This document shows, in pieces, positions 48,887 to 64,000 of a DNA stretch of 64,000 nt; within the stretch, counting starts at the first letter, position 1; every line of letters starts with the position of its first letter. The DNA is taken from positions 4,512,001 to 4,576,000 of the forward strand of contig OZ242374.1 in the NCBI GenBank assembly GCA_965209055.1, read 5' to 3'. Under the pieces are notes generated by a model that saw nothing but the letters and a program-made list of their open reading frames with translations, did not search any database and had not been told where the DNA came from. The translations under genes and the position numbers were made by a program. This stretch comes from Acidobacteriota bacterium. Its GTDB lineage: Bacteria; Acidobacteriota; UBA6911; RPQK01; JAJDTT01.

Positions 48887-49816
48887 CTACTGGGCGCGTT
48901 GGATGTGCCTGAGCAGCTCGCCCCTGGTGGTGAGGATCAGGATGGTCTTGGCGTCCACGCCCCGCTCGTAGGTCTCCATGCTCTTCATGAAGGCGTAGAA
49001 CGAAGCGTCCCGGTTGTACGCCTCGGCGTAGATCTGGGTCGCCTCGCCGTCGGCCCGGCCGCGGGTTTCCTGAGCCGTCTTGTACGCTTCCGACTGAATC
49101 CGCTGCAGCTCCCTCTCCCGCTCGCCCCGGATCCGGGCAGCCTCGCCCTGACCTTCAGACCGGTAGCGCTCGGCGATCCGGTTGCGTTCGGCGATCATGC
49201 GGGCAAAGACGTCCTTCTGAACCTCTTCCACGTAGTTGATCCGCTTGAGCTGGAGATCGATGAGCTCGATCCCGAAGTCGGCCACCTTGGGCGTAGCGGT
49301 CTCCAGAATTTCCCGGGTGATGGCCTGACGCCCGGTCTCGATGGTCTCCAGCACCGAGGTCTCCTCTTCGGCTTGGTCCTGGGCATCCTGGGGCTCCCGG
49401 TTGCTGGTCCGGACCACCTCCACCAAGTCGTGGCGGGCGATGGCATTGCGGGTCTCGCCGTCCAGGATGTCGTCCAATCGGGACTGTGCCCTGGGTTCGT
49501 CCCGCATCCGCTCCAGGAATCGGAGCGGATCGCTGATGCGCCACCTGGCATAGGTGTCGACCCAGATGAACCGCTTGTCCTTGGTCGGCATCTGGTCCGC
49601 GTCTCCGTCCCACTCCAGAAAACGCTTGTCGAAATAGTTGGCCGTCTGGATGAAGGGAAGTTTGAAATGCAGACCCGGATCGGTGACCGGATTGCCCACC
49701 GGTCTGCCCAACTGGGTGATGATGACCTGCTCGGTTTCGTTCGTGACGTAGGTCCCGTTCACCACCAGGGCGAGGACGGCCACAACCAGGATCAGATAGA
49801 GCTGCCGGCCCTTCAT
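48887..49816 (-). CDS. hflC: FtsH modulator HflC
   Basis: EQVIITQLGRPV..PGLHFKLPF; TKDKRFIWVD; RMIAERNRIAERYRSEG; YAEAYNRDASFY. Confidence 0.92.
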   Translation of the reverse strand: MKGRQLYLILVVAVLALVVNGTYVTNETEQVIITQLGRPVGNPVTDPGLHFKLPFIQTANYFDKRFLEWDGDADQMPTKDKRFIWVDTYARWRISDPLRFLERMRDEPRAQSRLDDILDGETRNAIARHDLVEVVRTSNREPQDAQDQAEEETSVLETIETGRQAITREILETATPKVADFGIELIDLQLKRINYVEEVQKDVFARMIAERNRIAERYRSEGQGEAARIRGERERELQRIQSEAYKTAQETRGRADGEATQIYAEAYNRDASFYAFMKSMETYERGVDAKTILILTTRGELLRHIQRAQ

Positions 49817-50823
49817 TGGTCCGTTCCCTCCGCCCGCGATCGGCCCGGGATCAACTTCTCCAGAGACTCCATGGGGAGCAGCGGGATGACACCGTCGGCA
49901 TCCTGGTCCAGAAACAGTTTGCGGCCTGATAGAGGCAGGATCTTCTGCATGGTCTCCAGGTACATCCGCCGCCGGGTGACCTCGGGCGCCCGGCGGTAGG
50001 CGTCGTGCAAGGACTTGAAGCGGGAGGCGTCCCCCTTGGCCTGGTTGACGCGTTCGAGGGCGTAGCCCTGAGCCTGCAGAACGGCCTGTTCCGCTTCACC
50101 CTTGGCCCGGGGGATCACCTTGTTGTACTCGGCGCGAGCCTCGTTGATGAGGCGGTCCATCTGTTGCTGGGCCTGGTTCACCTCGTCCCACGACGGTTTC
50201 ACGGGATCGGGGGGATTCACGTTCTGCAAGACGACCTGGTCCACGGTGATGCCGGTCTCATACTGCTTGCAGAGATTCTGAAGCTTCTGCTCCGCGCTGT
50301 CCTCGATTTCCTGGCGGCCCACGGTCAAGACCTCGGTGACGGTCCGGTCTCCCACCACCTCGCGCATCACCGCTTCGTTCATGTCCCGAAACGTCTCCTG
50401 GACGTTCCGGACCTTGAAGAGAAAAAGGTAGGGATCGGTGATCCGGTACTGGACGATCCACTCCACCACCGCCACGTTCAGATCTCCGGTGAGCATCAAC
50501 GACTCGTCCAGGAACCGCTTGGAGGCGTATCGCGTCCGGATCTCCGGCTGGGCGGTCCGAAACCCGAATTCCTGCTTGAGCTGACGCTGCACCGGGACTT
50601 TCAATACATCTTCCACGAAGGGGAGCTTGAAGCGAAGGCCCGGTTGGGCGGAGCGAACATGACGCCCGAAAAAAAGGACGACTCCGACCTCTTCCGGCTG
50701 CACCTGGTAGACGGTCCCGAAGGCCGTAATCGCCGCCAGAACGACCAGGATTCCTACTCGGACATACCTCCAATTGATTTTCGGAGGACGAAACTCGGGC
50801 ATGTCGAAAACTTGGTCAGCCAT
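49813..50823 (-). CDS. hflK: FtsH modulator HflK
   Basis: EVGVVLFFG..PGLRFKLPF; LMLTGDLN; VNPPDPV; APEVTRRRMYLETMQ. Confidence 0.92.
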   Translation of the reverse strand: MADQVFDMPEFRPPKINWRYVRVGILVVLAAITAFGTVYQVQPEEVGVVLFFGRHVRSAQPGLRFKLPFVEDVLKVPVQRQLKQEFGFRTAQPEIRTRYASKRFLDESLMLTGDLNVAVVEWIVQYRITDPYLFLFKVRNVQETFRDMNEAVMREVVGDRTVTEVLTVGRQEIEDSAEQKLQNLCKQYETGITVDQVVLQNVNPPDPVKPSWDEVNQAQQQMDRLINEARAEYNKVIPRAKGEAEQAVLQAQGYALERVNQAKGDASRFKSLHDAYRRAPEVTRRRMYLETMQKILPLSGRKLFLDQDADGVIPLLPMESLEKLIPGRSRAEGTDQ

Positions 50824-50919: not shown

Positions 50920-52197
50920 TCATGGGGAGCCGGCCGGCGATCCGTCGTATGCCCGGCTCACTTCGTCCACGATGATGTCGAGTCCGCATTCGATCCGGTC
51001 CCAGTCGTCGGCGTAACTGATGCGAATGCATTCCCGCTTGTGCCGCCAGTCGTCCTCCTCGAGTCCCGGAAAGAAGTAGTGGCCCGATACGACGATGACA
51101 CCGCGCGCTTTGAGCCGTTTGTAGAGCGTGGCGTTGGTCATGGGGAGGCCCGGCATCCAGAGCCAGAGAAAAAACGCGCCCTCCGGTTTGTGAATACGGA
51201 TCGGGTAGTCCTCCAGCCCGGCGCGGAGCCGGTTCACGGCGAGCTCCGCGCGATCCTGGTAGTGGGGCCGGATGACCTCCCGGACCAAAGCCAGGACCTC
51301 GCCGCTCTCGATGAGATCGGTGGCGAGGGCGGGTCCGAGCCTGCCGGGCGACAGGCAGAAGATGGCCGTGGCGGCGGCCAAAGCGGCGACGATCTCCTCG
51401 TTCGCGATGACGATCCCGGTGCGCAACCCGGGAAGTCCGAGTTTCGACAGACTCATGCAGACCACCATCTGCTCGTCCCATACCGGGGTGTCCTGATCGA
51501 AGACGATGCCCGGGAAGGGCGATCCGTAGGCCGTGTCCAGGATGAGGGGCACACCGCGGGAACGGGCGGCGGCGCGAAGCCGGTCGACCTCCAGGTCGGT
51601 GACCACGTTGCCGGTCGGATTGGACGGACGGGACACGCAGATTGCTCCAATGTCCTCGACACCGTCCATCTCCTCGAAGTCCACCCCGTATTTGAACAGC
51701 TTGCCGCCCAGCTCATGGATGGTCGAGCGGCAGGCGGTCAGCAGGCCGGGCGTGAGCCCCAGGTCCGCGTAGCCGATGTACTCCGGCGCCAGCGGCAGCA
51801 GGATGCGGCGCATGCTCCGGCCGGCATCCATGGGGCCGGCCAGGAGATTGAACAGGGGCAGGAAAGCGGATTGGCTCCCGTTGGTCAGGGCGATGTTTCG
51901 CTCACTGATATCCCAGCCCAGTTCTCTCCGCAGGAATCGGGCCAGAGCGCGGGCGAAATCCCGGTCTCCGTCCGGTCCGCCGTAAAAGCCGACCGCCTGC
52001 TCGAACGCCCCTTCGCGCTCCAGTAGCGCCTGCATCCGGCGGCGATACCGCGCGACGGCCGCCGGGACGAGGCTGGGATTGCCTCCTCCGAGATTCATAA
52101 TCGAGCCGCCGGACGCTGCAATTCCACCCAGGTCGTCCATCAGCGACCAGGTCCCCGAGTCACCCAACAGCCGCCGTCCGAACGCCGAAAAATCCAT
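50920..52197 (-). CDS. avtA: Valine--pyruvate transaminase
   Basis: SLMDDL; LGGGNP; NIALTNGSQSAF; LPLAPEYIGYAD; VSRPSNPTGNV; SLSKLGLPGLRTG; CIRISY. Confidence 0.88.
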   Translation of the reverse strand: MDFSAFGRRLLGDSGTWSLMDDLGGIAASGGSIMNLGGGNPSLVPAAVARYRRRMQALLEREGAFEQAVGFYGGPDGDRDFARALARFLRRELGWDISERNIALTNGSQSAFLPLFNLLAGPMDAGRSMRRILLPLAPEYIGYADLGLTPGLLTACRSTIHELGGKLFKYGVDFEEMDGVEDIGAICVSRPSNPTGNVVTDLEVDRLRAAARSRGVPLILDTAYGSPFPGIVFDQDTPVWDEQMVVCMSLSKLGLPGLRTGIVIANEEIVAALAAATAIFCLSPGRLGPALATDLIESGEVLALVREVIRPHYQDRAELAVNRLRAGLEDYPIRIHKPEGAFFLWLWMPGLPMTNATLYKRLKARGVIVVSGHYFFPGLEEDDWRHKRECIRISYADDWDRIECGLDIIVDEVSRAYDGSPAGSP

Positions 52198-52225
52198 GCT
52201 CACCTTGAGTCGCGTCCTCCCCTGT

Positions 52226-54048: not shown

Positions 54049-56901
54049 ATGACTCGACGCCTCTCGGCTGTGTTCATTCTGGCAATGGCGGCGGCCGCAG
54101 TGTTCCGTTTCGGATCCGGGTGGATCCCTTCCGCAGGAAAGACGACGCAGGCCTCATCTCCTGCGCCTGGCTTCGACCCGTCGCAGCTACACCTCACCGT
54201 GAAGGTCTCGCTTGGACTGAAGGACACGGAGCTGCAGGATTGGAACGGAATCGCCCACCTGAACCGGGGCGATTTCCACCGGATCCAGGGTTGGAACTTC
54301 GACGAGGAGAGGTCCGAGGTGGTTCAGGAACCGAAGATCGCCTGGCGGGTCCGGAGCAAGCGCCCCGACGTGGACACGAGCTGGACCGTCAAGGGACTCG
54401 GGAATTCACGTCCTCGCTACGGCTTCAAGCTCACCCGCCCCGTGGGCGTCTGGCTGCAACTGGACTCGGTCCCGGGAGCCCGGATGGACGTGAACACGGT
54501 GCAGGGAGATTTCCAGGTCGACCTGGACCAGCTTCCGGATACGGATCCCCTGTCGTTTCTGGACGGCGCCGCTTCAGTGGAGAGATCCCCGGCGGCTCTC
54601 CCCGTTTCCCGCTCGCCCGGAGAAGAAGACTACCCGTCCGTCGTGACCGGTCCCGACGGCCGGCTCCACGCGGCCTGGATCCAATACCAGGACGGGGCCG
54701 ATCACCTCTACCACAGCACGCTGGCCCGGAATGGCTGGGGGCCGCCCACCCGGATCCCTTCGGCCGGAGGGGAACCCATCTACGGATCGGTCCTGATCAC
54801 CGGTGGGCCCGGCGAGAGCCTCTGGCTCATCTACAATCAGCTTGCGCGAGACCAGTTCGACCTCTGGGCCCGCCAACTGAAACCCACTCTGGAAGATCCC
54901 ATCCAGTTGACCCGCCACCCGGGCAACGACATCAACCCGGTGACCGCTTCCGACGGCCGGGGGAGAAACTGGCTGGTCTGGCAGGGGCTGCGAGAAGGAA
55001 ACTCCGACATCTACGCCCTCTCCATCGCCGATTTCGGCCGGCTTCCGGACGAGATTCGCGTCACTGAGCATCCCGGGACCGACTGGCATCCGGCTGTCGC
55101 CGTCGACTCCAGGGGCGGGGCCGCCATCGTCTGGGACACCTACCGGAACGGCGACTACGACATCTATCTGAGAACCATCGGCCCCAGGGGCCGCCTGGGA
55201 AAGGTGGAACCGGTCTCGGCCACGCGGCATTTCGAAGCCAACGCGTCGGTGGTCTTCGACTCCCGGGACCGGCTCTGGGTCGCCTGGGAGGAATCGGGTC
55301 CCAAGTGGGGCAAGGACTACGCCCAGGAAAGCAACTTCGCGGCGACCCTGCTCCATTCCGACCGCAAGATTCGGATTCGCTGCCGCAGCCGGGGGAACTG
55401 GCACCGTATGGGACAGGACCCTGCAAGCCGCTTCCTGGACCTGCCTCTCAACTTCCAGGAACAGCCGCGGCTCCTGATGGGACGAAACGGCAACCTCTGG
55501 CTCATCTTCCGCCAATGGACCAGCCGCATGTACCCGGACGAGGTCTGGAACGTGTACGCCGTCCATTTCAACGGTGAGCAGTGGTCCAGACCGCGTGAGC
55601 TGGCCTTCAGCAGCGGCCGATTGACCCAGGAGTTTCCCGCGGCCGCACACCCGGACGGAAGCGTCTGGGTGCTCTATCCCACCGACTACCGCGCGGGCGG
55701 AAACCGGCGCCTGGGACAGTGGGACCTCTGGTCCTCGCGCCTGGCCGCGCCGCCGGCCACTGGCGAGGCCGTGGATCTGCGCCCGGTACCGGCCCCGGCG
55801 CCCGAGACGAGTTATTCGCCCACACCCAACAAGCTCTACGAGACAACGGTGGGGAGCAGGACCTATCGCCTCTATTACGGCGACCTGCACCGCCACACCG
55901 ATATCGTCGGTCACGGTTGGACCGACCTCTCTATCTCGGGTCAGTACCGTTACGCGCTGGACGGGGCGGAGCTGGATTTCATGGCCACGACGGACCACAA
56001 CCAGACCTACAACATGGTGGCGGGCGGGGAGAGGAAAGCCGGAAAGGAGGACGCGCTGGGCGAATATGGCTGGTGGCGGACCCAGAAGGTGGCGGACATG
56101 TACCTGTTTCCGGGCCGCTTCGTGTCCCTGTTCGGATACGAGCGGAGCATGGAATATCCGGGGGGACACCGCAATCTGATCTGGCCCGAGCGGCGCGGCG
56201 AACTGATCCCCGGCGACGTGGGCATCCCTTCGGACAACATTCCGCTGGGCCTCTGGGAAAGGCTCAAGGGGACCGACGGCATCTCCATCCCCCACTCTCC
56301 GTTGGGCCCGCGGGTGAGCTGGAAATGGCATGATCCGGTGAGCCAGCCGGTGCTGGAAATGTACCAGGGCTTCCGCCGCTCCTACGAGCACTCGGACGCA
56401 CTCCCCGAGGAGAGCCGGGGTCCGCTGGGAAACCGGCCCGAAGGACCCCACATGTTGTGGGACGCCCTGGCCCGGGGACACCGCATCGGCGTCATCGCCA
56501 GCTCCGACCATGAATCCACCCACATGTCCTACGCAGGCGTCTGGGCCACGGAGTTCACGCGGGAAGGAATCTTCCAGGGCCTGAAACAGCGCCACACCCT
56601 GGCCTCCACGGACAATATCGTCATCGACTTCCGTATCGGCGACGCCTTCATGGGGGACGAAACCACCGTCTCCGAGACCCCGAAGCTGGAAATCAAGGCC
56701 ATCGGGACCGGACCCATCCGCCAGATCGACGTGGTCAAGGACAACAGGTTCGTCTATCAGACCCGTCCCCACCAAAGGGAGGCATCGGTGACCTACCTGG
56801 ACCAGAACTCCGGACCGGGGACCAGCTACTACTACGTGAGGGTCATCCAGGAAGACGAAATGATGGCCTGGTCTTCAGCGATCTGGGTCACGCGACGGTA
56901 A
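54049..56901 (+). CDS. Secreted beta-propeller + PHP-fold (DUF3604/CehA-McbA-like) metallohydrolase
   Basis: Repeated P.V..D..G..W.VW..DIY blades; YYGDLHRHT, TTDH, IPH, ASSDH; C-term YYYVRVIQED..AWSS. Confidence 0.75.
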   Translation: MTRRLSAVFILAMAAAAVFRFGSGWIPSAGKTTQASSPAPGFDPSQLHLTVKVSLGLKDTELQDWNGIAHLNRGDFHRIQGWNFDEERSEVVQEPKIAWRVRSKRPDVDTSWTVKGLGNSRPRYGFKLTRPVGVWLQLDSVPGARMDVNTVQGDFQVDLDQLPDTDPLSFLDGAASVERSPAALPVSRSPGEEDYPSVVTGPDGRLHAAWIQYQDGADHLYHSTLARNGWGPPTRIPSAGGEPIYGSVLITGGPGESLWLIYNQLARDQFDLWARQLKPTLEDPIQLTRHPGNDINPVTASDGRGRNWLVWQGLREGNSDIYALSIADFGRLPDEIRVTEHPGTDWHPAVAVDSRGGAAIVWDTYRNGDYDIYLRTIGPRGRLGKVEPVSATRHFEANASVVFDSRDRLWVAWEESGPKWGKDYAQESNFAATLLHSDRKIRIRCRSRGNWHRMGQDPASRFLDLPLNFQEQPRLLMGRNGNLWLIFRQWTSRMYPDEVWNVYAVHFNGEQWSRPRELAFSSGRLTQEFPAAAHPDGSVWVLYPTDYRAGGNRRLGQWDLWSSRLAAPPATGEAVDLRPVPAPAPETSYSPTPNKLYETTVGSRTYRLYYGDLHRHTDIVGHGWTDLSISGQYRYALDGAELDFMATTDHNQTYNMVAGGERKAGKEDALGEYGWWRTQKVADMYLFPGRFVSLFGYERSMEYPGGHRNLIWPERRGELIPGDVGIPSDNIPLGLWERLKGTDGISIPHSPLGPRVSWKWHDPVSQPVLEMYQGFRRSYEHSDALPEESRGPLGNRPEGPHMLWDALARGHRIGVIASSDHESTHMSYAGVWATEFTREGIFQGLKQRHTLASTDNIVIDFRIGDAFMGDETTVSETPKLEIKAIGTGPIRQIDVVKDNRFVYQTRPHQREASVTYLDQNSGPGTSYYYVRVIQEDEMMAWSSAIWVTRR

Positions 56902-59990: not shown

Positions 59991-60464
59991 CTAACGCCCC
60001 ACATCCCGAATCGACTTCCCAAATTCGTTTTCCCAGTCGCTGACCATCTCGAAATCGCTCTGGGTCACCCTCCAGGATCCGAACTCCCGCTCCAACAGGA
60101 AGGACTGGCGGGTGTTGCGGTCGTTGTAGACCGTCTCGGTCAGGACGCGGACCTGATCCGGACTCAGTTCCTCCTGGCCCAGAATGGCCAGACCCTTGAC
60201 GGCGCTTCCGCGCCTCCGGAGCCACTCCGACAGCCAGGGCGCCGAGTCCCGCGCCAGCAGGTCTTCCAGGCGCCTTCTCAGGTCTCCGCCGAAGCACTCC
60301 TTGAGCGCCGCGACGTCACCGCGCTCCATGGCCTGAACCATGGCGATCAGGACGTCGTCCGGATTCTCTTCCCTCTCCGTGTCCTTGACGGGGGTCTCGC
60401 GTGTGACGAAATAGAGGAAACAGCCGAGGATCGCCAGCAGGGAGAACCATTTCCTGGGTTCCAT
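59991..60464 (-). CDS. Membrane-anchored hypothetical protein, NTF2-like fold suspected
   Basis: N-terminal hydrophobic helix; DDVLIAMVQAMERGDVAALKECF..FLLEREFGSWRV. Confidence 0.65.
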   Translation of the reverse strand: MEPRKWFSLLAILGCFLYFVTRETPVKDTEREENPDDVLIAMVQAMERGDVAALKECFGGDLRRRLEDLLARDSAPWLSEWLRRRGSAVKGLAILGQEELSPDQVRVLTETVYNDRNTRQSFLLEREFGSWRVTQSDFEMVSDWENEFGKSIRDVGR

Positions 60465-60500
60465 CTCCGTCTCCCCGAGGGTCCGCTTCGCCGGCGTCCC

Positions 60501-61424
60501 TCACTCCTCCACGGCGAAGATATCCAGGTCCAGGCCCTGCCGGCTTCCGGCATCGTCCAAAATGACCTTGCGGGTGCGGGGCAGGATCTCCTCCATGGCC
60601 TCCAGGAAGAGGCGCGCCGTGGTGACGGTGGGATGGCGCCGGTATTCTCCCCACAGGCTCAGGAAGTGCTGCGACTCGCCCTGGGACCGGTCCACCACCT
60701 CCCGGCCGTAGATTCGGGCCTGCTGGAGGTTTTCCTGAGCCTGGCCGCGGGTTCGAGGCAACAATTCGCTGGCGTATCCCCGGGCCTCCTGCACGATCCG
60801 GTTCCGGTCCTCCCTGGCGTTGGCCACCTCCAGGAAAGCATCGCGGACCTGTTCGGGAGGACGGACCTGTTCCAGGGCCAGGGCGGTTACGGCCACGCCC
60901 AACGCCAAGCGGTCCGCCTCCTGCTGGAGATCCTCCCGGACACGATTCTGGATCTCGATGCGGCCCGTGGTGAGCACGTCGTCGACCCCCCGGATCGCCA
61001 CGGCTCGAGAGAGGGAACGATAGAGCAGGACCTCCAGGACCCGGGGAAGATCGCGGGATCGATACAGATACCGTCCCGGATCCTGGATGTAGTACTGAAT
61101 GGAGGCCCGGAACTGGACCAGGTTCTGGTCGCCGCTCAACAGGGAGTCGTCCTCCGTCAGGACCCGGACTCCCAAGGCCCGGTCCAGATCGGTGCCCCCG
61201 ACGGTGAGACGCTGGGCCTCATTCGTCTTCAACAGGATCACCTCTTCCAGAGGGTACGGAACCGCGTACTGCAGACCCGGTTGGATCCGCTCCGGAAGCA
61301 GCCGGCCCAACCGCAACTTCACCGCCTGCCGATCGGTGGGGACATAGTAGATCCCGGACGCCACGTACAGGGCGACCAACACGGACGACAGCAGCAGGCT
61401 GTTCCGCCGCAACCAGTTTCTCAC
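60501..61424 (-). CDS. HflK-like SPFH protein
   Basis: SGIYYV..RLG..PGLQYAVPYP; LLSGDQN; VRPPEQVRDAF; TTARLFLEAMEEILP. Confidence 0.88.
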   Translation of the reverse strand: MRNWLRRNSLLLSSVLVALYVASGIYYVPTDRQAVKLRLGRLLPERIQPGLQYAVPYPLEEVILLKTNEAQRLTVGGTDLDRALGVRVLTEDDSLLSGDQNLVQFRASIQYYIQDPGRYLYRSRDLPRVLEVLLYRSLSRAVAIRGVDDVLTTGRIEIQNRVREDLQQEADRLALGVAVTALALEQVRPPEQVRDAFLEVANAREDRNRIVQEARGYASELLPRTRGQAQENLQQARIYGREVVDRSQGESQHFLSLWGEYRRHPTVTTARLFLEAMEEILPRTRKVILDDAGSRQGLDLDIFAVEE

Positions 61425-62368
61425 CGGGCCAACCTTCCGTTACGCCCTTCGGTCAGCAACTTGAGCAACTCCGAGTCGGCCGAGAGGACCGCGGTGGTCT
61501 TGTCGTCCAGGATCCGCTGGTACGCTTCCAGCGTCCTGACCATCTGGTAGAACTCGGGATCCCGCGAATAGGCCCTTCCGTAGATCCGGGCGGCCTGCGC
61601 GTCCGCCTCGCCCCGGATGATCTCCGTCTGCTTGTAGGCCGCCGACAGCAGTTCCTCGGCCTGGCGGTCCGCCTCGGCCCGGATCTTGCGGGCCTCCTCC
61701 TCTCCTTCAGCCCGGTATTTCTTGGCGATGCGGTCCCGTTCCGCCCGCATCCGGGCATAGACGCTCTCCCGGTTCTGGGTCGGCAGGTTGATCCGCTTCA
61801 CGTCCACTGACGCGATCCGAATTCCGTAACGTTGGCGGGAGACTTCATCGCACTCGCGCGTGAGTTTCTCCATCAAGGGTTCCAGGCGCACCTGTTCCGG
61901 GTCCGTGGCCACCAGCTCGGAGAGCTCGGTCCGGCCCAGATCGGCGGAGACCGACGACCACACGATGTCGTGCAGGCGCATCTCGGCCCCGGAGCGATCC
62001 CCGACGGCCCGCAGATACCGGAGCGGCTCCTGGACCTGCCAGATCACGTAGGTCTCCACCAGGAGATTCTTCTTGTCCCGGGTCAGATACTCGGAAGGCC
62101 GGGGATTGTAGAGATGCAACCGTTTGTCGATGCGCGTGAGCCCCTGGAAGAACCATTTGAACCGGAGTCCCGCCTCCTTGTACTCGGCAACGGGGCGTCC
62201 GAACTGGGTCACCAGGACCATCTCCTCCTCGTTCACCGTGAACAGGCTCCGGTACGCCAGAATCAACAGGACCACGATCCAGAAGACCTTGCTTCGGATC
62301 ACCCTTCCGGTTCCGACCGATTGCCTGCTTTTCTCGCCGTCCGCGGGCGCCTTCACTGGGTAGTGCAT
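61421..62368 (-). CDS. HflC-like SPFH protein
   Basis: VLVTQFGRPV; LTRDKKNLLV; RMRAERDRIAKKYRAEG; YGRAYSRDPEFY..RTLEAY. Confidence 0.9.
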   Translation of the reverse strand: MHYPVKAPADGEKSRQSVGTGRVIRSKVFWIVVLLILAYRSLFTVNEEEMVLVTQFGRPVAEYKEAGLRFKWFFQGLTRIDKRLHLYNPRPSEYLTRDKKNLLVETYVIWQVQEPLRYLRAVGDRSGAEMRLHDIVWSSVSADLGRTELSELVATDPEQVRLEPLMEKLTRECDEVSRQRYGIRIASVDVKRINLPTQNRESVYARMRAERDRIAKKYRAEGEEEARKIRAEADRQAEELLSAAYKQTEIIRGEADAQAARIYGRAYSRDPEFYQMVRTLEAYQRILDDKTTAVLSADSELLKLLTEGRNGRLAR

Positions 62369-62375
62369 CTCCGGG

Positions 62376-64000
62376 TCATCTCCCACTGGCGGAGACCGCC
62401 TTCTCCAGGTCTCCCAAATTGAACACCGAGTTACGGAACAGCAGCATCTTCCGGCGTCCCGAGCTCTGGTCCAGGATGTACTTCTTTTTCCCTGCCAAAC
62501 CCGCCTCGACCGCCTCCAGGTAGACACGGATCCGGGTCGTCTCGGGCGACATGCGATACGCGCCGTAGCGCAGATCGAAGCGGCGGGACTCGCCTTCGGA
62601 ACGTTGGACCCGGGAGACCGCATAGGCCCGGGCCTGGATCTGGCGCCCCTGGGCCTCACCCGCCGCGATGGGGACCCGCTCGTTGGCGTAGGCATGAGCC
62701 TCGTTGATCATGCGGCTCTTCTGCTCCAGGGCGCTGGCCACGTCCCGGAACGCCCCCACCACCTCCAGCGCGGGATGCACGTCCTGGAGCTGGAACGCCT
62801 GGATTCGAACGCCCAAGCCCAGACGATCCGCCTCCGATCGGACCATCTCCATCGCCGCGCTCTCGATGGTGCGCCGGTCGAGGGCCAGAATCCGGTCCAG
62901 CTCCATGGTGGCCGCCACCTGGCGCAAGGCGCTCTCGCACAGGAACTGCAAGGTGGATTCCAGGCTCGAGCTGGCGAAGAGGTATTGATGGAAGTCGGCG
63001 ATGGTGTAGTGGACGACCGCGTTCACCTCCACCAGGTACTCGTCTCCCGTGAGCATGAGCGCCTCGTCTTCCCTCCGCAGATAGCGTCCCTGCCGATGCT
63101 GAATGTTCCACTCGTAGGCGGCCGGCCCCCCTTCGACCTCGGCCGCCGAGTCGGAGATCCGGAAACCCAGCTCCACGGTGCGTACCTGCGCCGGCCGGAG
63201 CCGGTGGAGGGTCTCCACGGGCCAAGGCGCCACGTAGTGAAGGCCCGATCCCAATGAACCCTCGACCAGCCGGCCCAGTCGCTGGACCACTCCCACCTCT
63301 TCGGGCGCCAGGATCCGGATCCCGGAGAGCAGGTACGCCAGGACGGCAGCCGCCCCGGCCCAACGCAGCAGGGACCCTTTGCGATGGCCTGCCCAGTGAA
63401 GGGAGTGCCTGAAGAGATGGGCTGGATTCCGATGGTGCAACCAATGGAGCACATCGTGCTGGAGATGGTGGACCTCGTGGCGGAAGTGGTGGTACCGGTG
63501 GCCCAGGTGGTGCAACCGGTGGCGAAGCCGGTGGGGAAGAAAGTCCGACGGCCGGCGATCCAGCAGCTTGAGGGAATTCATCAGGACCAGGAACGAGGAA
63601 CCCTGGTGGACGACGGCGGCGCCCACGGCGCTCAGGTACCCCCAGAAGGCGGCCATGACCGCGGCCAGGTTGAAGACCAGACCGAACCAGAAGATGTTGT
63701 CGTGAATGGTCTTGACGGCGCGGCGGCTCATGCGGATCAACGGTTTCAGGCGGTCGAGCCCCCCATCCCCGACCAGAACCACCCCCGACGCTTCGGCTGC
63801 GATGTCGGTCCCCGTGTCCCCCATGGCGATGCCGACGTGGGCGGCGGCCAGGGACGGCGAGTCGTTGACGCCGTCTCCCACCATGGCCACCCGGAGGCCC
63901 TGGAGCTTGAGATCCTCCAGCTGGGCCAGCTTCTCCTCGGGAAGCAGGCCGGCATGCACCTGGGCGATCCCCACCTCGCGGCCCACCCGAAGGGCCGCCT
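62376..64000 (-). CDS. Heavy-metal P1B-type ATPase (C-terminal part) fused via a His-rich linker to an HflK-like SPFH domain; 5' end outside the window
   Basis: LLPEEK, MVGDGVNDSPSLAAAHVGIAMG, AAVVHQGSSFLVLMNSLKLL; then 18-His linker, TM helix, EVGVVQRLG..GLHYVAPWP..LMLTGDE..DVHP..PETTRIRVYLE; frame open to the window edge. Confidence 0.88.
   Translation of the reverse strand, partial: AALRVGREVGIAQVHAGLLPEEKLAQLEDLKLQGLRVAMVGDGVNDSPSLAAAHVGIAMGDTGTDIAAEASGVVLVGDGGLDRLKPLIRMSRRAVKTIHDNIFWFGLVFNLAAVMAAFWGYLSAVGAAVVHQGSSFLVLMNSLKLLDRRPSDFLPHRLRHRLHHLGHRYHHFRHEVHHLQHDVLHWLHHRNPAHLFRHSLHWAGHRKGSLLRWAGAAAVLAYLLSGIRILAPEEVGVVQRLGRLVEGSLGSGLHYVAPWPVETLHRLRPAQVRTVELGFRISDSAAEVEGGPAAYEWNIQHRQGRYLRREDEALMLTGDEYLVEVNAVVHYTIADFHQYLFASSSLESTLQFLCESALRQVAATMELDRILALDRRTIESAAMEMVRSEADRLGLGVRIQAFQLQDVHPALEVVGAFRDVASALEQKSRMINEAHAYANERVPIAAGEAQGRQIQARAYAVSRVQRSEGESRRFDLRYGAYRMSPETTRIRVYLEAVEAGLAGKKKYILDQSSGRRKMLLFRNSVFNLGDLEKAVSASGR

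Follow-up and report, generated by a model that had tools for sequence, protein, structure and literature searches.

Metal transporters fused to HflK in conserved SPFH gene cassettes: a P1B-type pump with a dedicated HflK/HflC set in an Acidobacteriota genome and its relatives in other phyla

We describe a four-gene cassette at the right-hand edge of a 64,000-nucleotide stretch of an Acidobacteriota genome (contig OZ242374.1, positions 4,512,001 to 4,576,000; hereafter the window), in which a P1B-type metal ATPase is fused to an HflK protein and is followed by genes for HflC, a second HflK and a small membrane-anchored protein. Comparison with other genomes confirms that HflK/C-type scaffolds carrying metal transporters as covalent subunits are a real, widespread and unstudied design, and shows that the four genes are inherited together across phyla. 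Going beyond the preliminary description of this DNA, we find that HflK is also joined to exporters of other kinds, namely CDF proteins, ZntA-like ATPases for Zn/Cd and SO_0444-type efflux permeases for Cu/Zn. The balance tips, if only slightly, towards a reading in which the products of all four genes work as a single membrane machine, a dedicated SPFH ring of the HflK/HflC type into which metal pumps are built as covalent subunits, with His-rich cytoplasmic tails feeding them. The features of the cassette, all on the minus strand, are as follows (TM, transmembrane; AF2, AlphaFold2).

62376..64000 (-): P1B-ATPase::HflK fusion, 3' part within the window; stop codon 62376-62378
Window-equivalent 65447 (M45) or 65579 (first ATG) (-): 5' end of the fused gene, outside the window; contig position 4577447 or 4577579
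63858..63875 (-): GDGVND hinge of the P domain (residues 569-574), aligned to the CopA, sCoaT and ZntA structures
63561..63707 (-): last two ATPase TM helices (about residues 625-673), TM6 aligned to 7qbz
63363..63560 (-): His-rich, positively charged cytoplasmic linker (residues 674-739, 66 residues), from composition and AF2
63306..63362 (-): single TM helix of the HflK part (residues 740-758), from hydropathy; AF2 helix 734-750
62379..63305 (-): periplasmic HflK-type SPFH domains, coiled coil and C-terminal segment (residues 759-1067), from profile, PDB match and AF2
61421..62368 (-): cassette HflC paralogue (P0005, 315 residues), after a 7-bp gap
60501..61424 (-): free second HflK paralogue (P0006, 307 residues), GTG start, GTGA overlap with the HflC stop
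59991..60464 (-): small protein with N-terminal membrane anchor and NTF2-like domain (P0007, 157 residues), beginning 36 bp past the free-HflK stop

The genome is represented here by one contig of 6.08 Mb, and the fused gene lies on its minus strand at the right edge of the window, where the open reading frame (62376..63998) is still open; in the genome the whole frame spans 1078 residues from stop to stop. Translation from the first ATG gives a protein of 1067 residues (P0001), which serves as our numbering reference. The true start is likely to be M45, giving 1023 residues, since relatives at 59-66% identity begin to align at residue 45, a database protein that is 89% identical (P0008) is itself 1023 residues long, a sigma-70-like TTGAAC-16-TATAGT element lies just upstream of M45, and the AF2 confidence score (pLDDT) is below 50 across residues 1-47. 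The preliminary description had reported a P-type ATPase hinge, the last TM helix of the pump, a His-rich linker and a full HflK in one uninterrupted frame, followed by the HflC-like gene, the HflK-like gene and the small anchored gene at the spacings listed above; every one of these elements was found. Pfam recognises E1-E2_ATPase (PF00122), a HAD hydrolase (PF00702) and Band_7 in the fused protein. Its topology is coherent: the pump ends, and the linker lies, in the cytoplasm, and the single TM helix that comes next carries the chain to the periplasm, where the SPFH domain is placed just as it is in HflK.

The ATPase half carries the motifs of a P1B-type pump: ITGES (222-226), CPC in TM4 (318-320), FDKTGTLT (361-368; DKTGT at 362-366) and GDGVND (569-574), with HQGSSFLVLMNS at residues 658-669 of P0001 in TM6. 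DKTGT and CPC lie upstream of the letters on which the preliminary description was based, and both are present. The heavy-metal P-type ATPase model TIGR01525 matches at 543 bits against a cut-off of 346, and full-length alignments to the solved P1B pumps LpCopA (3rfu), sCoaT (7qbz), AfCopA (7r0g) and ZntA (4umv), which share DKTGT, the hinge and a CPC or SPC in TM4, have E values of 1e-94 to 5e-84. The pump is complete, and its metal-site signature is unusual in combining the CPC of TM4 with an Asn from TM5 and a His-Gln pair from TM6. This signature is strongly retained among 110 fused homologues: the CPC of TM4 is found in all 110, as are F632 and N637 of TM5 (N628 in 105) and H658-Q659 of TM6, after which come S661 and S662.

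None of the exporter subclasses considered accommodates this combination. P1B-2 exporters of Zn, Cd and Pb (ZntA type) have a Lys in TM5 and a DxG motif in TM6; ZntA 4umv has both and the window pump neither, with N637 in TM5 and H658-Q659 in TM6, and the ZntA equivalog models fall far under their cut-offs (401 vs 1005; 346 vs 1240). P1B-1 Cu+ exporters (CopA type) are marked by YN in TM5, MxxSS in TM6 and, usually, N-terminal HMA domains. Where LpCopA has YN and a Met/Ser motif the window pump has FN and HQGSS, a domain scan gave no HMA domain and no N-terminal metal-binding domain in the pump, and the copper model TIGR01511, at 405 bits, barely exceeds its cut-off of 397 and lies below the Cd-family model at 460. 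P1B-4 pumps (sCoaT/CzcP type) have SPC in TM4 and HEGxT in TM6. The window pump has HQGSS at the site aligned with HEGST of sCoaT 7qbz, and across the fused homologues the His of TM6 is kept but Gln replaces Glu in 110/110, with CPC in TM4 in 110/110. We lean towards a divalent metal as the pump's substrate, most likely Zn2+, Cd2+ or Co2+, because the site would offer two Cys and a His, the Cd-family model scores above the Cu model and the pump is followed by a His-rich segment. Pumps of this kind also occur without HflK. When the best 150 pump representatives were taken after clustering at 50%, 47 were fused, with TM6 HQ in at least 22 of these and HE in at least 8, and at least 11 unfused pumps had CPC/HQ; these counts are floors, as the regular expression used for TM6 left 91/150 representatives unclassified. 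Ten unfused CPC/HQ pumps were inspected by record name and no Pseudomonas was among them. The window's genome has one other P1B pump only, a copper type with YHS and HMBD domains.

The C-terminal half of the fusion is an HflK by profile (TIGR01933, 178.4 bits against a cut-off of 159.4, over residues 754-1045) and by its match to E. coli HflK 7vhp (E 4e-27), with AF2 helices at 938-1007. It also contains a loop, YEWNxQHR (residues 822-829; window 63093-63116), in which Y, E, W, N, H and R are invariant and Q827 nearly so across 33 aligned CPC/HQ-type fusions, and which is found neither in free HflK nor in the other fusion types; AF2 confidence around it is low (pLDDT <50 for 812-848). The next two genes encode an HflC (TIGR01932, 198.3 bits against 134.4) and the free HflK (TIGR01933, 196.4 bits against 159.4; TM helix 10-28). 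The small protein matched no Pfam family, and its sequence found nothing below E 0.04 among PDB chains. Its NTF2-like fold, in which helices form a cone against a curved beta sheet, was recognised from the AF2 model (pLDDT 80.6), in which four helices precede four strands: Foldseek returned 50 PDB matches at E<=0.001, NTF2-like proteins prevailing among the rows listed, with E values of 3e-5 and below for those proteins. A complex prediction between this protein and the membrane-proximal halves of the three SPFH proteins scored 0.01 (mark 0.32), which is informative neither way.

The fusion is far from unique to this genome. Searching with the HflK part gave at least 282 fusion-length proteins at E<=0.001; all 120 matches listed of these have Hydrolase and Band_7 domains and 111 have E1-E2_ATPase too, the remaining nine being proteins of 607-775 residues, mostly from short contigs. 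Of 48 related genome loci, 41 hold ATPase and HflK in one frame. In one more (L021, 5914-9064; also G393:C1:1963576-1964412) the fused gene is split into overlapping frames of 758 and 391 residues, reflecting either a frameshift or a sequencing error. The other six comprise three unfused Colwellia/Alteromonadaceae pumps (~30% identity), two ordinary Hyphomicrobiales hflKC pairs and one locus that starts inside the HflK domain. Across the 42 fused or split loci, HflC comes next in 39 and free HflK is present in 36, and every locus without one stops at a contig edge. The gene for the small protein was found in 33 of the 42 at E<=1e-8, with eight cut by contig ends and L036 recognised by a weaker match only; its position varies, being upstream in L027 and on the opposite strand in L015. 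By record title the fusion loci belong to Acidobacteriota, Armatimonadota, Planctomycetota, Verrucomicrobiia, Lentisphaeria and Abditibacteriales, with one Clostridia metagenome-assembled genome, and the fusion is retained at 38-45% identity over several phyla. Proteins combining ATPase and Band_7 domains, and their synteny, which the preliminary description had proposed as a check, are conserved across phyla. When 401 genomes of Acidobacteriota were sampled, 21 of them, counting the window's own, had the HflK part within a frame of at least 1000 residues, and one had it split (G393); any HflK-like match was found in 155 genomes, the unpublished G152 being counted there and in no fusion count.

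An assembly error that joined two genes is excluded because independent metagenome contigs, from other studies, cross the junction: X6 (10,953 nt, over 60000-64000 with 35 differences) and X10 (61511-63703). The stretch 60000-64000 is present in 20 public runs of eight studies, and those with labels are sponge metagenomes, so the organism is probably a sponge-associated acidobacterium. In one metatranscriptome library short contigs, 90-95% alike, lie on parts of all four genes; they come from a relative and do not show transcription. Beyond the window, divergent neighbours (L001 7578-14430, plus strand) include a GHL10-like protein (weak match), a 717-residue exported protein without a Pfam family and a planctomycete-type cytochrome-domain protein (PSCyt1/PSCyt2/PSD1). 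When 400 scored genomes belonging to the same class as Colwellia locus L045 (by its record name, Gammaproteobacteria) were searched with the ATPase part, 17 matched at E<=1e-100, and the cassette was found in none of the 12 short and none of the eight extended loci; L068 alone has an ordinary-looking hflK-hflC pair, at a distance of 5 kb.

The cassette's SPFH proteins are additional to an ordinary HflK/HflC pair that lies about 10 kb away, adjoining a valine-pyruvate transaminase gene (50920-52203).

49813-50823 (-): housekeeping hflK, TIGR01933 281 bits
48887-49816 (-): housekeeping hflC, TIGR01932 264 bits; ATGA overlap with hflK

As this pair is present as well, the cassette represents a dedicated second SPFH set, in a genome with seven Band_7 genes altogether. 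Phylogeny agrees with a separate set. In a quick maximum-likelihood tree of 64 rows (SH-aLRT, an approximate likelihood-ratio support, only; the Hyphomicrobiales HflK entered under both labels), the 20 fused HflK domains form one clade (99) and the 20 free HflKs a sister clade (98), the two being joined at 83. The cassette HflCs also group together (88). Neither the canonical proteins of the window nor the Hyphomicrobiales hflKC fall within any of these cassette clades.

HflK has, moreover, been welded to other metal transporters. In three Acidobacteriota genomes (G026, G007 and G042) it occurs in frames of about 745 residues, and in the locus read from the first of these (L053 2865-6915, G026:C37) the frame joins HflK to a PF03773 permease that has a CSCG motif and a Cys-rich loop, and HflC and a free HflK come next; L053 has no NTF2 gene. 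With the HflK part of L053 as query, the 120 fusion-length matches listed comprised 88 with PF03773 and Band_7, 13 with Cation_efflux and Band_7, 13 with P-type ATPase and Band_7, and six with Band_7 only. Some of the PF03773 fusions bear the NCBI name 'SO_0444 family Cu/Zn efflux transporter', and SO_0444 itself is described, in passages of PMC3219624, as required for growth under ZnSO4 or CuCl2 stress. Four of the ATPase fusions, proteins of 1106-1133 residues (P0165, P0167, P0175 and P0189), represent a second, independent type in which HflK is joined to a ZntA-like ATPase, complete with a His-rich N-terminus, an HMA-like domain, CPC, the TM5 Lys and the TM6 DxG. A Cation_efflux::HflK fusion (515 residues), again followed by HflC and HflK (375 residues), is encoded on the conjugative plasmid NZ_CP018172.1 of Aquibium oceanicum B7 (L075 5463-9108). 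There the annotation of these genes goes no further than HflK or HflC; nearby lie genes for PCu(A)C, SCO, a PPIase and a CopA-like pump that has HMA domains, and a two-component system is encoded upstream. Since A. oceanicum B7 is in culture, the fusion design could be tested in it. A plasmid search with HflC gave 62 matches, most of them ordinary-looking hflKC, of which the top match was read. Examples of fusions in the databases include HEX4948441.1, MGA2132100.1, MBV9081154.1, PYM33982.1, RIK38962.1 and MDJ0852286.1.

Both of the non-CPC/HQ loci that were read (L053 and L075) thus have the order fused HflK, HflC, free HflK. In a second quick tree, of 51 HflK domains with three canonical HflK rows, a single clade (95) unites the free HflKs from cassettes of all three kinds (ATPase, SO_0444 and CDF) and the ZntA-type fusions are nested within the SO_0444-type clade (99, 87, 95), the placement of the three canonical HflKs being unsettled. 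Taken together, the clades of this tree and the shared gene order make the HflK-HflC-HflK module look like a single lineage whose first HflK has been joined to different exporters.

A further recurrent feature of these cassettes is a His-rich cytoplasmic segment. In the window protein residues 674-745 contain 18 His, 12 Arg and Lys and 4 Asp and Glu, and AF2 predicts mainly helix, with modest confidence, for 683-732. Linker length and His content differ between homologues. The linker carries a His-rich segment in L014, in L038, in the group around L007 (L007-L010, L016 and L020) and in the clade to which the window belongs; in the Bryobacterales it is an N-terminal tail on the cassette HflC (L026 8911-9921, 22 His; L042 8911-9861, 7 His), and in the Verrucomicrobiia an N-terminal tail of 15-21 His on the free HflK (L031 9668-10702; L032 9660-10736; L033 9827-10894). 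At least five His within 20 residues occur somewhere in 22/42 cassettes, a crude window count in which many carriers are close kin and three free-HflK (K2) entries are mis-assigned. The shift of the tail from one subunit to another suggests a shared cytoplasmic face at which all three N-termini come together and at which it would be immaterial which subunit is the carrier. The natural reading is that a metal-binding tail may be useful on whichever SPFH subunit bears it.

How might such a machine operate? By homology, the fused and free HflKs would share the HflK positions of a ring, alternating with HflC. The free HflK is kept in all 36 loci whose contig reaches it; bulky pumps may therefore be unable to fit at every position, and the free protein would fill the remaining ones. 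The ring could gather and stabilise exporters within one membrane patch, with the His-rich cytoplasmic segments binding a divalent metal (likely Zn2+, Cd2+ or Co2+) and passing it to the pump. The metal would then reach the periplasm at the SPFH dome, either under it or alongside, in the region predicted to contain the anchored NTF2 protein too; the periplasmic SPFH wall, its conserved YEWNxQHR loop and the NTF2 protein would all sit on the exit side. The preliminary description had proposed an SPFH cage built around the pump; the HflK/HflC set is indeed a dedicated one, and a closed cage of the three SPFH proteins would be expected by homology to E. coli HflK/C.

Several observations weigh against this picture. 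Ring or cage formation is predicted from membership of the HflK/HflC family, and transport direction, metal and any link to FtsH are likewise putative. The CPC/N/HQ signature matches no exporter subclass of known metal, so we can only infer what the pump carries and which way. HmtA of Pseudomonas aeruginosa, the one published P1B pump encoded beside three HflK/C-family genes, is reported as a Cu/Zn importer and is induced by zinc starvation instead of excess, a poor fit to a detoxification platform. His-richness is missing from 20/42 cassettes and cannot be essential. Both trees are quick ones with only three canonical HflK rows. Finally, when the flanks of 18 diverse loci were clustered, no neighbour was conserved past the four cassette genes, a DUF3604-type gene excepted, and no metal-sensing regulator was found.

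One competing explanation is that the cassette serves control through FtsH: its ring would recruit the cell's FtsH in the manner of E. coli HflK/C, and the exporter, held by its tether within the compartment of the protease, would be protected from it or delivered to it for regulated turnover as metal levels change. All three SPFH proteins do score above the curated HflK or HflC cut-offs and the genome has two ftsH genes, but both lie millions of bases from the cassette, none is in or near it, and the flank clustering of 18 loci brought no such conserved neighbour to light. The preliminary description's suggestion that metal export is tied to proteolysis found no support in gene neighbourhood. 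In addition, the separate housekeeping hflKC scores better against the same models, and the His-rich tails and the NTF2 protein are left unexplained, such that we consider this account unlikely.

Equally unlikely, in our estimation, is zinc allocation or acquisition of the HmtA type, in which the pump would act in scarcity, either importing Zn or Cu or exporting a little to metallate periplasmic enzymes, with the SPFH ring and NTF2 protein forming a delivery compartment. In its favour, P. aeruginosa hmtA and the HflK/C genes beside it are induced by zinc depletion and bound by Zur, according to passages of PMC4542158, PMC8531726 and PMC11761036, and the window pump has no N-terminal metal-binding domain and an atypical TM6. 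A further point in its favour is that an exported protein of about 1000 residues with Reg_prop repeats and DUF3604 (L027 2789-5842) is encoded directly upstream of the cassette in L027, L035, L036 and L041, and a 950-residue exported full-length homologue of the L027 protein (29% identity, E 5e-132) lies about 3 kb from the cassette in the window (54049-56901, plus strand). This could be a cassette-linked periplasmic metalloenzyme, or a coincidence. Set against these points, the transporters of the sister cassettes (ZntA-like, CDF and SO_0444) all belong to exporter families, the 250 bp upstream of the operon contain no inverted repeat and no Zur-like palindrome, and neither His, Cys nor Met is conserved in the small protein.

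Less likely still is a stronger version of the scaffold, in which the ring would be a closed periplasmic vault over a membrane patch containing exporters only. Metal would be released not into the open periplasm but into a sealed nanocompartment lined by the NTF2 protein and the YEWNxQHR loop, there to be passed on to a client or sequestered from the remaining envelope. If true, an SPFH cage would for the first time be credited with a chemical function and with a defined cargo that is built in. That the fusion is meaningless, a tolerated read-through of adjacent, co-expressed genes or an assembly artefact whose pump and SPFH proteins act separately, is very improbable: the split gene of L021/G393 and the unfused CPC/HQ pumps described above would suit it, but the fusion is kept across several phyla, HflK is joined to at least four transporter types, and contigs X6 and X10 cross the junction.

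We thus return to a dedicated SPFH ring with built-in pumps as the reading we favour, and its wider interest lies in the long-standing question of what SPFH cages (HflK/C, prohibitins, stomatins and flotillins) do for the proteins they enclose. Here a client has repeatedly been welded to the cage, and the clients, from three unrelated transporter families, two to three P1B subtypes included, all handle transition metals. With a defined client, a phenotype that can be selected as metal tolerance or starvation and a fixed tether, the contribution of the cage becomes directly testable. For metal homeostasis, the cassettes point to a widespread, unannotated organisation of exporters, effluxosome-like but made of different parts, which present-day automatic annotation conceals behind labels like 'FtsH protease activity modulator HflK' or 'cadmium-translocating P-type ATPase'. 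A full-text literature search (passages and abstracts, without supplements) returned no paper on a transporter-HflK fusion and none giving PA2437-PA2439 of P. aeruginosa a role. The statement in the preliminary description that no characterised system has this architecture accordingly agrees with the literature searched, and the unstudied fusions it had thought possible do exist in databases.

Amongst known systems, the cassette's SPFH proteins resemble E. coli HflK/HflC (with FtsH; PDB 7vhp, 7wi3 and 9cz1) in their N-terminal TM helix, periplasmic SPFH domain, coiled coil and adjacent paralogues. In the parts of PMC12005517 consulted here, the E. coli complex is described as 12 heterodimers around four FtsH hexamers, with mild and indirect phenotypes only. 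The cassette differs in that a covalent bond ties one HflK to a metal pump, each HflC is matched by two HflK paralogues, an NTF2 protein is added and no FtsH link is evident, and in that it coexists with housekeeping hflKC. Among published cases the nearest is an uncharacterised, Zur-regulated gene cluster of P. aeruginosa, hmtA-hflK/C (PA2434-PA2439), which, going by published descriptions, likewise combines a P1B-type ATPase with three HflK/HflC-family genes and is linked to zinc homeostasis, although there the genes are separate whereas in the window pump and HflK are fused. Table 2 of PMC4542158 gives PA2435 (hmtA), PA2437, PA2438 and PA2439 as 5.6- to 14.4-fold up on zinc depletion, passages of PMC8531726 report that Zur shifts the PA2439 promoter, and passages of PMC11761036 that proteins of the PA2434-PA2439 cluster are more abundant in Zn-depleted cells; HmtA itself is reported as a Cu/Zn importer in the review excerpted here (PMC8456098). 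The fusions suggest a role for the unexplained HflK/C genes at this locus. By analogy of function only, the closest precedent is the PacL1-CtpC effluxosome of Mycobacterium tuberculosis, built from unrelated parts. PacL proteins belong to DUF1490 and not to the SPFH family, their foci are independent of the flotillin-like protein, and scaffold and pump are unfused. Excerpts from PMC9374683 and PMC13043812 describe PacL1 as a small membrane scaffold with a His-containing metal-binding motif that acts as a metallochaperone and forms foci with the pump. As has been proposed above for the SPFH ring, this scaffold clusters and stabilises P1B pumps.

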